Shown piece by piece: positions 24,267 through 24,712 of a stretch of 58,020 bases of DNA (within the stretch, counting starts at the first letter, position 1; the number at the start of each line of letters is the position of its first letter). Source of the stretch: Rickettsia typhi (GTDB lineage Bacteria > Pseudomonadota > Alphaproteobacteria > Rickettsiales > UBA1997); contig CAMDCJ010000001.1 in assembly GCA_945890035.1 (NCBI GenBank), forward strand, positions 1-58,020, read 5' to 3'. The position numbers and the translations under genes are program-made. The notes beneath the pieces were generated by a model, which was not told the DNA's origin, did not search any database, and saw nothing but the letters and a program-made list of their open reading frames with translations.

Positions 24267-24712
24267 ATAAAAGGCTTCGGGTTTTAGCTCCCCCCTTGAG
24301 GGGGAGCAGACGAAAATGTCTTAACGGTAGTTAAGACATTTGAGTCGTGGGGGGTCAAAAAAGCTTATAGCGACAACGATTTTAAGATTATGTAAAAAGT
24401 TGAAATGAAAAAAATTCAAAAAAGACAATTTTTGATTTTGTTTTTAACGCAAGAAGATACATTTCTAATCACCCCTCACCCTAACCCTCTCCCCGCCTTC
24501 GGGGAGAGGGTTAGGGTGAGGGGTTTTTATTTTAAAAGTCAAATAAAGAAATTGACTTTTTTGAAAAATTATTTTTTGAAATTTTTACTTTGGCTTGAAA
24601 TCGATTATAATCTAGGCTTTTCTGACCCCCCACGTCTCCGCGAATTTAACTACCGTTAAATTCTCGTAGCCCGCTCCCCCTCAAGGGGGGATCTACAGCC
24701 CGAATCTTTTTC
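24267..24712. repeat. ~410-450-nt giant imperfect inverted repeat (composite palindromic element, copy X-ii)
   Basis: The left arm (24286-24363) is gctccccccttgagggggagc..aaatgtcttaac-ggta-gttaagacattt..gtggggggtcaaaaaagc. The right arm (24616-24693) is gcttttctgaccccccac..gaatttaac-tacc-gttaaattc..gctccccctcaaggggggatc. The flanks aggcttcgggttttag and ctacagcccgaatct are also complementary. Confidence 0.85.
24470..24523 (+). repeat. Perfect 25-bp GC-rich hairpin nested at the centre of X-ii (terminator-like)
   Basis: acccctcaccctaaccctctccccg - cctt - cggggagagggttagggtgaggggt, followed by tttttatttt. There are no mismatches in the stem. Confidence 0.9.

Follow-up and report, generated by a model that had tools for sequence, protein, structure and literature searches.

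A covarying hairpin is the variable middle of a three-part extragenic repeat in UBA1997-like Rickettsiales

When a short hairpin recurs in a single stretch of a Rickettsiales genome with the same core and loop, and with outer stems that differ between copies and are each matched by their own complement, what is the conserved unit: the local hairpin, the larger palindrome in which it often lies, or something else? We examined this question in a window of 58,020 nt, the whole stretch of DNA that was analysed. Five copies of TTAAC-GGTA-GTTAA had been reported here in a first-pass annotation, and all five are present and exact. The 14-mer TTAACGGTAGTTAA occurs on the plus strand at 24321-24334 and 51690-51703, and on the minus strand at 3097-3110, 24646-24659 and 51884-51897, compared to a chance expectation of 0.03 matches; at least five copies were seen in 0 of 100 dinucleotide shuffles.

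A three-part repeat unit in the window

The sequence contains the three different self-complementary stem extensions that had been read from these copies, with slight changes to their limits. The first copy does form a 12-bp hairpin, at 24314-24341 instead of 24313-24340, as base 24313 is an extra A that faces G24342 outside the hairpin; a tandem G.A internal loop follows and then an outer gac/gtc stem, reaching from 24309 to 24346. Similarly, the 16-bp stem at 51873-51908 is real and incomplete, since a 17th pair, G51872-C51909, exists.

This hairpin (hp2) is the variable middle stem-loop of a three-part extragenic repeat unit of ~85 nt. On the strand that reads GGTA in the loop (the GGTA strand), the order is a first hairpin (hp1, GCTCCCCCC-TTGA-GGGGGAGC), a linker of 1-3 nt, hp2, a purine tail, (C)GTGGGGGGTC, and an A-run. 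The flanking modules, hp1 and the tail, are more conserved than hp2 itself, and the edges of the unit are sharp, with pairwise homology between copies limited to the interval from about -30 to +40 nt around the core. Units occur in the window at a density of ~5 per 58 kb, together with two fragments:

2339-2388, plus strand: partial unit without the TTAAC-GGTA-GTTAA hairpin; tail CGTGGGGGGTC at 2370-2380 and inner flank; weak covariance-model match, 16.3 bits
3067-3195, minus strand: unit A, a single unit (motif matches, repeat D12, covariance-model match of 68 bits); head 3075-3085, hp2 3086-3121 (core 3097-3110; 11 bp with one mismatch, 3091-3116), hp1 3124-3187
24279-24364, plus strand (the GGTA strand): unit B (sequence, motif matches, covariance-model match of 99.5 bits)
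24287-24307, plus strand: hp1 of unit B, gctcccccc-ttga-gggggagc
24309-24346, plus strand: hp2 of unit B; inner 12-bp hairpin 24314-24341, core 24321-24334, GGTA loop 24326-24329
24346-24356, plus strand: purine tail of unit B, CGTGGGGGGTC, with the A-run next
24616-24701, minus strand: unit C, inverted partner of unit B (motif matches, covariance-model match of 90.8 bits); in plus-strand coordinates, head GACCCCCCACG 24624-24634, hp2 ~24635-24670 (core 24646-24659, 9-bp inner stem 24642-24663), hp1 24673-24693
24279-24701, no strand assigned: composite palindrome of units B and C, tail-to-tail (inverted repeats I2 and I9, alignment of 13 composites, terminator-like site)
51648-51733, plus strand: unit D (motif matches, fold, covariance-model match of 96.2 bits); hp1 51656-51676, hp2 ~51677-51715 (core 51690-51703, inner stem 51686-51707 with a G.T pair), tail CGTGGGGGGTC 51715-51725
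51854-51939, minus strand: unit E, inverted partner of unit D (motif matches, covariance-model match of 105.2 bits, weak match of 24.5 bits to Rfam whalefall-1); head 51862-51872, hp2 51872-51909 (17 bp, core 51884-51897), hp1 51911-51931
52012-52040, plus strand: 3' half of a 'type Y' unit, truncated, with the sequence ttggcgatgcg-GAGAGGGGTC-agaaaagc; it belongs to the wider superfamily, and its hp2 is different

The predicted fold of unit B has a free energy of -37.6 kcal/mol (z = -6.3). Unit A lies downstream of the minus-strand gene 3292-4698, ~100 nt from its stop codon (the ORF ends at 3292 and the unit at 3195), and the hp1 of unit A is split by a nested AT-rich palindromic module (~3128-3171). 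Units usually stand tail-to-tail, forming the arms of composite palindromes of 400-600 bp; the cores of units B and C are 325 nt apart and those of D and E 194 nt. The spacer of the 24279-24701 composite has inverted repeats of its own (24342-24445 and 24535-24638, 71% complementary), and at its centre lie an unrelated, GC-rich perfect hairpin and then a T-run (24466-24529). In an alignment of 13 composites, module junctions coincide with palindrome centres, and shuffled modules, nested insertions and chimeric arms were all seen among units.

Many different palindromic module families coexist in these regions; in each family the centre is conserved, and the outer stems vary between copies but match each other. 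In one AT-rich module the outer stems are GCTCTTCGC/GCGAAGAGC or GTTATTTGC/GCAAATAAC.

Covariation and strand asymmetry of the hp2 stem

The covariation-like pattern noticed in five copies holds in a far larger sample of relatives, 44 to 137 distinct units from ~12 freshwater Rickettsiales MAGs (UBA1997-like), when set against shuffle and slid-partner controls. Among 44 distinct 40-mers from these relatives, 86.9% of cells were paired compared to 70.1% in shuffles, and 144 cells were double-changed compared to 47.7±7, a number reached by 0 of 500 shuffles. The shuffle controls ignore relatedness; the slid-partner controls, which keep it, gave 24-42 double-changed cells when the partner was displaced by 1-3 columns, compared to the 144 in true register. 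In a covariance-model alignment of 137 distinct units, which leans towards structure because it was fitted to that structure, 93.2% of cells were paired and double changes were found in 25 of 25 pairs. Both helices, hp1 and hp2, covary.

At least 15 distinct arm variants exist among the relatives, and several form a series that differs by single compensated steps (attctAgaaac/gtttcTagaat, attctataaac/gtttatagaat, attccagaaac/gtttctggaat and attacataaac/gtttatgtaat), with a G.T intermediate (attctaggaac/gtttctagaat). Core variants are compensated too: relatives carry GCAAC-GGTA-GTTGC and CTTTAC-GGCA-GTAAAG, and loops also read GGCA or GTTA, so that the constancy of loop and core described earlier applies to the window and not to the family. 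Not every copy is complementary: ~10% are non-complementary chimeras that arose by recombination at the core, and many copies keep uncorrected mismatches. As had been observed, the stem variants differ between the arms of each local composite (24314-24341 versus 24642-24663, and likewise 51686-51707 versus 51873-51908). The conserved structural unit is the local hairpin and not arm-to-arm pairing of the composite, with complementarity kept through many independent double substitutions. The hairpin is thus a covarying local structure, as proposed, although it is only the middle module of the larger three-part unit.

The two strands are not equivalent, and the GGTA strand appears to be the one that folds. 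On the opposite strand, mismatches comprise nine A.C compared to three G.T, plus 23 C.T/T.C, which on the GGTA strand are G.U wobbles and G.A pairs. Judged by calculated folding energy, the GGTA strand gives the more stable hp2 in 37 of 43 RNA comparisons and in 40 of 43 DNA comparisons, and it still does so when the loop is neutralised (27 versus 8). GNNA-type loops (GGTA, GGCA, GTTA) are obtained only when read on the GGTA strand. Strand-specific folding of this kind therefore favours a single-stranded form, either DNA or RNA.

Placement and turnover among related genomes

A covariance-model search that covered 432 kb of element-bearing loci (~12 MAGs) found 143 units, and in an exact-pattern scan freshwater MAGs alone were among the matches listed. 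In this freshwater, cryptophyte-associated Rickettsiales clade (family UBA1997-like), almost all units lie between genes, next to gene 3' ends. When ORFs of 110 aa or more are counted, 96 of 99 cores are clear of them; the ORFs that contain the remaining three are spurious, being low-complexity translations of the repeat itself. Units are flanked by convergent genes in 19 cases, by tandem genes in eight and by divergent genes in none, compared to 37, 157 and 40 background intergenic regions, respectively. Neighbouring pairs are tail-to-tail in 19 of 24 cases and never head-to-head (21 of 29 are tail-to-tail in the wider family), and 10 of 13 single units have the same sense as the upstream gene. 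No recurrent gene beside the units was found in a neighbour-gene search of partial genomes by single-sequence comparison, and no match to them in viral contigs.

Units are gained and lost between close relatives. The composite downstream of recJ is missing from one relative (L076) between the same flanking genes, and both units between ccmE and parB are missing from another (L285), despite a ParB that is 99% identical. Both loci differ by complex replacement or module swaps between relatives and not by clean insertion; collinear BLAST found no clean pair of filled and empty sites among the fetched loci. In one MAG, a single arm variant is present in at least 26 copies. Strain-level contigs that carry two of the window's proteins had no repeat polymorphism, the repeats being colinear and near-identical, and the repeat-filled region 51365-51931 is 0.18% divergent between strains compared to 1.4-4.9% in adjacent genes. 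This low divergence fits function or concerted evolution better than neutral junk. Contigs often end at units; since units break metagenome assemblies and mark hypervariable intergenic regions, recognising them helps in finishing and annotating MAGs.

Possible origins and likeness to known elements

With somewhat better than even confidence, we take the unit to be a REP/REPIN (BIME)-like element, that is, a structured, non-autonomous repeat whose single strand has to fold. A compact hp2 hairpin on the GGTA strand would be required by selection or by the copying step; because hairpin formation is required, hp2 would be free to drift as long as its arms stay complementary, giving subfamilies with different matched arms, and single copies would later decay or recombine at the shared core into chimeras. 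We infer that the units have probably spread by transposition-like copying of single-stranded DNA through a putative enzyme, rather than by recombination alone, but the module swaps between relatives, in place of clean insertions, mean that recombination or gene conversion alone might explain the spread. The units, which would be transcribed in sense from the upstream gene, may also act as RNA stem-loops at mRNA 3' ends.

The likeness to REPs drawn in the first-pass annotation is apt as far as behaviour goes: the units lie outside genes, next to gene 3' ends, in high copy number and as inverted doublets. Like REP/REPIN elements, they are short GC-rich imperfect palindromes in an AT-rich background, with structure conserved beyond sequence and strand-specific folding, but they differ in having three parts over ~85 nt, a mirrored purine tail, a 5' NTAG tag and a doublet spacing of 190-350 nt (in the UBA1997-like clade). 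In the REP/RAYT system the gene for RAYT, a Y1 HUH transposase, is typically flanked by REPs, and the palindrome carries a conserved GTAG-type tetranucleotide at its 5' foot. The corresponding tetranucleotide of hp1 reads CTAG in 22 of 76 units, GTAG in 21, TAAG in 16 and ATAG in 6; TAG is conserved and GTAG is not. Searches of ORFs of at least 70 aa in partial genomes, using phmmer with E. coli RayT (L158:3638-4135) and IS200 TnpA as single-sequence queries, returned no RAYT or IS200-type Y1 transposase ORF, either from 1.08 Mb of element-bearing DNA (threshold E≤10) or from a further 0.81 Mb (threshold E≤1). We do not claim membership in the REP/RAYT system, because the three-part unit is larger, the core is not constant, ~10% of copies are chimeras, no Y1 transposase was found in these searches and there is no strict GTAG tag.

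Other known elements share some of these properties. Rickettsia palindromic elements (RPEs) are reportedly dispersed palindromic repeats of Rickettsiales genomes that can form stable hairpins (Ogata et al. 2000, 2002), in which respect they resemble the units; they are known from the genus Rickettsia and noted for in-frame insertion into protein-coding genes. Compared with RPEs by description, the units differ in that no real case of in-frame insertion into a protein-coding gene was seen among the 99 cores. Both MITEs, such as Neisseria Correia elements, and IS200/IS605-derived PATEs are similarly non-autonomous and non-coding, with long inverted arms and nested insertions, and the two ends of the units carry different hairpins, as do the left and right ends of IS200/IS605. 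Unlike MITEs and PATEs, the units had no target-site duplication, fixed target, parent IS or TnpA that we could find: the outer ends of 13 doublets, which are blurred by further modules in the UBA1997 clade, had no consistent duplication and no constant insertion target. We rejected an intrinsic terminator, as an A-run and not a U-tract follows the tail on the GGTA strand, no terminator-like site overlaps units, and counts are not above shuffles. Likewise, a promoter-like TTTACT-16-TATAAT precedes one unit (24584-24611), but homologous positions elsewhere are not promoter-like and matches are not enriched.

It is possible, though we doubt it, that the unit is mainly a cis-acting RNA element in the 3' UTR of the upstream gene, in which hp1, hp2 and the tail protect the mRNA 3' end or stop or process convergent transcripts, hp2 is a structural connector free in sequence, and the copy number reflects recruitment by many genes. 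The sense orientation of units at 3' ends and never in divergent (promoter) regions would be expected of such an element, as would G.U and G.A mismatches and a GNNA loop on the sense strand, strong conservation of the repeat stretch between strains, and an architecture like that of the orphan whalefall-1 ncRNA motif. The variable presence of units at the same genes in near-identical relatives argues against it, as do the missing U-tract or terminator signature, promoter and terminator matches that are not enriched, and the module shuffling, nested insertions and chimeric arms that are typical of selfish DNA; moreover, the mirror-type coupling of tail and hp1 suits a purine-motif triplex, which forms with DNA and is not known to form with RNA strands.

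Arm complementarity could instead arise mechanically, if intrastrand template switching or hairpin-templated repair converted one arm into the complement of the other, such that the variants are a by-product of palindrome maintenance in double-stranded DNA. We judge this improbable: many palindromic module families do have conserved centres and variable matched outer stems, with junctions at palindrome centres, but a strand-symmetric process predicts no asymmetry, and we observed wobble and G.A mismatches, the GNNA loop and the loop-neutralised preference of 27 versus 8; mismatches also stay uncorrected in many copies, and chimeras persist. Most improbable of all is descent alone, in which a few whole palindromes were recently duplicated and the covariation reflects a handful of founder copies. 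Multi-copy subfamilies do occur, orthologous copies in related MAGs inflate part of the counts, and the shuffles take no account of kinship. The arm variants, however, include compensated series and cores across genomes whose RecJ identity falls to ~62-69%, the slid-partner values are 3-6 times lower than those in true register, and founders that differ by matched double changes still need a pairing constraint.

A wider alphaproteobacterial superfamily exists, as the architecture of hp1, variable hp2 and tail is also found in Kaistia, Bauldia, Micavibrio and others. In this wider family 48 units seem to lie 'in ORFs', and analysis of gene orientation there is unreliable because naive ORF calling fails in GC-rich genomes. 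Neither the units nor the superfamily loci match any Rfam family at the gathering threshold, the window yielding a single tRNA only, and permissive scans returned sub-threshold matches to whalefall-1 (RF01762) and otherwise only generic hairpin and miRNA noise. Whalefall-1 scores 24.5 bits on the minus strand at 51862-51933, 13.1 bits on the plus strand at 24285-24356 and 16.5 bits in type Y (L035), compared to a gathering score of 37, with no match in variant L060; whalefall-1 is nevertheless the top or near-top weak match for three different subfamilies. It was described as an orphan ncRNA candidate from whale-fall metagenomes only, and as a stand-alone ncRNA and not a dispersed repeat (Weinberg et al. 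2010, PMC2864571). Whalefall-1 has the same order of parts as the units. A CU-rich/GA-rich hairpin (CuCuCC-UUGG-GGaGaG) is joined by a short linker to a second hairpin, which is variable and whose loop often reads CUUG, like that of type Y units; next comes a purine tail (GgGuGAGGAC) that likewise mirrors the purine arm. This is resemblance and not membership, as no score reaches the gathering threshold, although the orphan motif may gain a genomic home and an interpretation. We found no literature on the sequence strings of the units or on repeats in the UBA1997-like clade. UBA1997-type Rickettsiales, epibionts of cryptophyte algae with few transposases, are poorly known, and they gain a well-defined structured repeat family, supported by covariation and tied to an unannotated superfamily in cultured Alphaproteobacteria such as Kaistia granuli DSM 23481, in which experiments are feasible.

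The purine tail is the mirror image, on the other side of hp2, of the purine arm of hp1: G stands opposite G, and T or A opposite A. At mirror-equivalent positions of tail and hp1 we counted (G,G) 147 times, (A,A) 11, (G,A) once and (A,G) never, and the symmetry is shared by units of the canonical, TCTC, X and Y types as well as by the consensus of whalefall-1. The coupling hints at a triplex. We think it unlikely that the units define an undescribed, widespread alphaproteobacterial class of folded single-stranded elements, from UBA1997 to Kaistia, Bauldia, Micavibrio and Rhizomicrobium and probably including whalefall-1, which would be defined by an intramolecular triple helix. If so, the tail would fold back over hp1 via G*G-C, A*A-T and T*A-T triads, and hp2 would be a mere connector hairpin, therefore free in sequence with its pairing kept. 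Purine-motif triplexes form with DNA and are not known from RNA strands, and the active form would thus be single-stranded or H-type DNA at gene ends; it might, for example, be the recognition structure of a putative protein that mobilises the units or blocks replication or transcription. The mirror coupling is an unusual structural prediction that can be tested directly. Watson-Crick pairing of the tail with the 5' arm of hp1, as proposed by RNAalifold, suits type X and one register of the others, and we prefer the mirror reading because such pairing needs different registers for X and Y. A G-quadruplex suits type X, with its four G3 tracts, and not the canonical or TCTC types. The likeness to H-DNA mirror repeats, which form purine-motif triplexes, is one of sequence symmetry only, in the mirror-symmetric purine tract; classical H-DNA has long homopurine runs in duplex DNA, whereas the units have arms of 7-8 nt beside two hairpins.

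Anatomy of the repeat unit

The hairpin with the core TTAAC-GGTA-GTTAA is one part of a unit that, read on the GGTA strand, consists of a hairpin with a TTGA loop (hp1), the GGTA hairpin itself (hp2) and a purine tail. The window comes from a bacterial chromosome, has 32% G+C and carries housekeeping genes including recJ, rpoD, pnp, ccmE and parB. The 14-mer TTAACGGTAGTTAA from hp2 matches it exactly five times (+ strand, 24321-24334 and 51690-51703; - strand, 3097-3110, 24646-24659 and 51884-51897), against a mean chance expectation of 0.03, and none of 100 dinucleotide-preserving shuffles had five. 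Reading the sequence bears out the five stems and three differing extensions reported in the first-pass annotation: aaatgtc/gacattt; gaat/attc, with the longer form gcgaat/atccgc; and attctagaaac/gtttctagaat. Its first 12-bp hairpin exists but lies one base to the right, at 24314-24341, and its stem at 51873-51908 is present but has 17 pairs, not 16. The hairpin at 24314-24341 extends via a tandem G.A internal loop to an outer gac/gtc stem (24309-24346).

Two extra motifs accompany every hp2 copy, GACCCCCCACG (six window matches versus 0.05 expected) and the GC hairpin CCCCCTCAAGGGGGG (six versus 0 expected). The order on the GGTA strand is hp1 (GCTCCCCCC-TTGA-GGGGGAGC), a linker of 1-3 nt, hp2, (C)GTGGGGGGTC and an A-run. 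When 104 instances are compared in pairs, homology usually stops ~30 nt from the core on one flank and ~40 nt from it on the other, which gives a unit of ~85 nt; the differing arms interrupt many alignments at the core, and additional module boundaries lie near -110 and +85. The copies in the window are:

2339-2388: sixth locus, tail alone
3067-3195: unit A, single, with a nested AT-rich palindromic module that splits hp1
24279-24364 and 24616-24701: units B and C, a tail-to-tail pair
51648-51733 and 51854-51939: units D and E, a tail-to-tail pair

Covariation and the folding strand

In a gap-free alignment of 44 distinct hp2 sequences anchored on the core, standard pairs occupy 86.9% of cells, compared to 70.1% with partners shuffled, and double-sided changes occupy 144 cells, compared to 47.7 ± 7 (0 of 500 shuffles reached 144). 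When partners were displaced by 1-3 columns, a control that preserves relatedness, 24-42 cells were double-changed. Among 137 distinct model-aligned units, in an alignment fitted to the structure, 93.2% of cells are paired and double changes occur in all 25 of the hp1 and hp2 pairs. Variants form a one-step compensated series (attctagaaac/gtttctagaat, attctataaac/gtttatagaat, attccagaaac/gtttctggaat, attacataaac/gtttatgtaat, attctaggaac/gttcctagaat), and a G.T intermediate, attctaggaac/gtttctagaat, is also found. The covariation-like pattern proposed earlier is correct and statistically robust in this larger sample. Only a minority of stems fail to be complementary, and there are far too many variants, too finely graded, for a few recent whole-palindrome duplications to account for them. 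The core, described as constant, is so in the window's five copies, but in other subfamilies it covaries too (GCAAC-GGTA-GTTGC and CTTTAC-GGCA-GTAAAG). About 10% of copies are chimeras with left and right arms of different variants (for example at the comparison loci L056, L034, L068, L037 and L010), an outcome expected if the shared core recombines.

The mismatches in well-paired copies differ between the strands. Read on the TACC strand, they are 9 A.C/C.A versus 3 G.T/T.G, plus 23 C.T/T.C; read on the opposite, GGTA strand, the same mismatches are G.U wobbles and G.A pairs, a conserved tandem GA/AG among them. With RNA parameters, 37 of 43 distinct hp2 sequences are more stable on the GGTA strand, as are 40 of 43 with DNA parameters, and with the loop set to AAAA on both strands the GGTA strand is still favoured by 27 versus 8 (P = 0.007, with non-independent instances). 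The loop variants GGTA, GGCA and GTTA are all G-N-N-A on this strand, with two single exceptions, and loop orientation relative to the flanks is constant in all instances seen. Mismatch asymmetry, stability bias, loop fit and fixed orientation therefore favour single-strand folding of the GGTA strand; they argue that the constrained form is a folded single strand, DNA or RNA, and against a strand-symmetric duplex mechanism. The local hairpin as the constrained unit is thus supported, as a locally folding single strand, by both covariation and strand asymmetry.

In the strain locus L154, the hp2 loop of unit D (equivalent of window 51696) has changed from GGTA to GTTA, still G-N-N-A. The pattern of a conserved centre with covarying outer stems also holds for a second family of palindromic modules, whose centre is AT-rich (TAAAAATAGCCGTTTAGGCTATTTTTTTAAC) and whose outer stems are variable yet complementary (GCTCTTCGC/GCGAAGAGC or GTTATTTGC/GCAAATAAC). 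It occurs alone or nested in the 5' arm of hp1, at 3128-3171, 2613-2658 and 2774-2838 of the window, at 1800-2180 of L076 (the locus with an orthologous recJ spacer) and at many other loci.

Relatives, superfamily and the mirror rule

Scanning a single genome from each species with the exact pattern gave at least 71 loci, often at contig ends, and among the matches listed the head-plus-core combination was confined to ~12 freshwater MAGs labelled Rickettsiales, Alphaproteobacteria or (wrongly) Rickettsia typhi, including 'Rickettsiales bacterium UBA1997'; no viral contig matched the exact pattern. The window's RecJ shares 94-96% identity with that of the closest carrier MAGs and 62-75% with that of other unit-bearing MAGs. 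A covariance model built from 75 units found 143 units in 432 kb of scan loci and none in 630 kb around recJ of 80 relatives. The family UBA1997 comprises freshwater epibionts of cryptophytes according to a preprint, in which the words 'palindrom' and 'intergenic' are absent.

The model also matched units of like three-part order with an unrelated hp2, type X (ACCCTCCCCTTGCGGGAGGGT-aaaattttctGCAAgaaaatttt-GGGAGGGGG) and type Y (ACTCTCCCCTTGCGGGAGAGT-cgcagagccaaCTTGttggcgatgcg-GAGAGGGGG), and the pattern CCCCTTGCGGGAGRGT-N16-44-GRGAGGGG found at least >150 units. Among the matches listed, the hosts are Kaistia (cultured strains too), Bauldia, Micavibrio, Rhizomicrobium, Parvibaculum and other alphaproteobacterial MAGs, and the units are mostly tail-to-tail doublets 20-90 nt apart. 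No Rfam family covers these units and their sequence strings do not occur in the searchable literature. The closest catalogued motif is Rfam whalefall-1 (RF01762), an ncRNA candidate of unknown function from whale-fall metagenomes only (PMC2864571); its model scores 24.5, 16.5 and 13.1 bits for three subfamilies, below the threshold of 37, and does not match a fourth. Pattern matches in two Bacteroidaceae MAG contigs (L228, L254) are tandem arrays of CCCCTTGCGGGAGGGTTGGGGAGGGGTCC-like units without hp2, possibly unrelated or a degenerate superfamily relative.

In all types, starting at hp2 and reading the purine arm of hp1 (its 3' arm) backwards gives the sequence of the purine tail. This mirror rule also holds for the consensus of whalefall-1 (arm GGaGaGA, tail GuGAGG).

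Table. Purine arm of hp1 and purine tail by unit type
Canonical: hp1 3' arm ...GGGGGAGC; tail GTGGGGGG
TCTC: hp1 3' arm GGGAGAGC; tail G(T/A)GAGGGG
X: hp1 3' arm GGGAGGGT; tail GGGAGGGG
Y: hp1 3' arm GGGAGAGT; tail GAGAGGGG

With both positions free, the arm,tail counts are (G,G) 147, (A,A) 11, (G,A) 1 and (A,G) 0, the 11 (A,A) cases representing roughly three independent hp2 contexts. Antiparallel purine-motif triplexes form with DNA strands, and the mirror rule (T/A opposite A, G opposite G) may, as a hypothesis from sequence, reflect the requirement of such a triplex. If so, hp2 would be a mere connector returning the tail onto hp1, which would directly explain why its pairing, but not its sequence, is conserved. 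RNAalifold proposed ordinary antiparallel pairing between the tail and the 5' arm of hp1; this suits type X but calls for another register in type Y, and we prefer the mirror reading.

Classification, placement and turnover

We classify the element as a structured extragenic palindromic repeat in which hp2 is the variable connector of a three-part unit; the mirror rule could instead mark a triplex-forming element class across Alphaproteobacteria, which we consider less likely. The closest functional analogue is REP/REPIN (BIME). Rickettsia RPEs insert into coding sequence, MITEs and PATEs have target duplications or a parent IS, and intrinsic terminators have a U-tract, which sets each of them apart from these units. 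We do not assign the units to REP/RAYT, because we found no mobilising enzyme, no recurrent ORF beside the units, no strict GTAG and no evident target-site duplication. With E. coli RayT and IS200 TnpA as queries, phmmer detected no RAYT/IS200 ORF in the 3,237 ORFs (1.08 Mb) from the window and loci at E ≤ 10, or in the 4,947 ORFs (0.81 Mb) surrounding members of the wider family at E ≤ 1, and the hp1 5' foot is NTAG, with GTAG in just 21 of 76 units. Thus, of the first-pass interpretation, the locally folding single strand and the REP/REPIN-like behaviour stand, but the RAYT link is unsupported and the hairpin's place in a three-part unit had been missed.

Nearly all cores (96 of 99) lie outside ORFs of ≥110 aa, and the other three lie in spurious translations of the repeat. 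Where both neighbouring genes are known, 19 are convergent, 8 tandem and 0 divergent, compared to 37, 157 and 40 for background intergenic regions of the same loci. Among 24 pairs of adjacent units, 19 are tail-to-tail and none is head-to-head, usually with cores 322-349 nt apart, and the entire ~600-bp composite is a conserved imperfect palindrome. The hp2 variants differ between a composite's two units in 13 aligned composites, and also in doublets of other taxa. Relative to the gene at whose 3' end a single unit lies, the GGTA strand is sense in 10 of 13 cases. Neither promoter-like nor terminator-like sites are enriched at units, and the unit lacks a trailing U-tract.

At the centre of the B/C composite (24466-24529), a GC-rich hairpin with >20 perfectly matched bp (cacccctcaccctaaccctctccccgccttcggggagagggttagggtgaggggt) runs into TTTTT; only on the + strand does it resemble a terminator. 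The unrelated alphaproteobacterial MAG L197 has a comparable palindrome, CCCTCACCCT..CCCTCTCCCC, separating two units. The gene adjoining this composite (24807-25862, - strand, 351 aa) has no Pfam match and overlaps the stop of a C-5 cytosine DNA methylase gene (25859-26947, - strand, PF00145), with which it may form a restriction-modification pair.

Between species, units are gained, lost and reshuffled, and within species they are kept constant or homogenised, as seen from absences in relatives and near-identity among strains. L076, with the same flanking genes, lacks the composite downstream of recJ, and the two recJ spacers share one 85-nt module as their sole common part. In L285 (ParB 99% identical), both units of the ccmE-parB interval are missing and 154 nt, including an inverted copy of a flanking module, replace window 51644-51980; at this locus four more relatives have no unit and one has a diverged unit (38.7 bits). 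In three strains (97-98% identical overall), the repeat-filled 51365-51931 differs at 1 of 567 nt (0.18%), compared to 1.4-4.9% in adjoining genes, and the next 348 nt are 7.2% different in a patchy, conversion-tract-like manner.

The window carries other repeats too. At 47105-47354 lie two tandem copies of a 125-nt unit (97% identical), and related 122-nt copies lie directly downstream of recJ (23938-24059) and ccmE (51350-51478); short GATTTAAGATTGGAAGCGGTATTT modules occur in five repeats. The spacer downstream of recJ holds a short tandem array of about 4 copies of aatctcaca(t/c) (24108-24150), and the orthologous L076 spacer holds a different one, tttactctat x4. Directly outside unit E, the module at 51932-52000 is a dense patch of differences from L152-L154, strains 97-98% identical, and looks like a gene-conversion tract from another copy.
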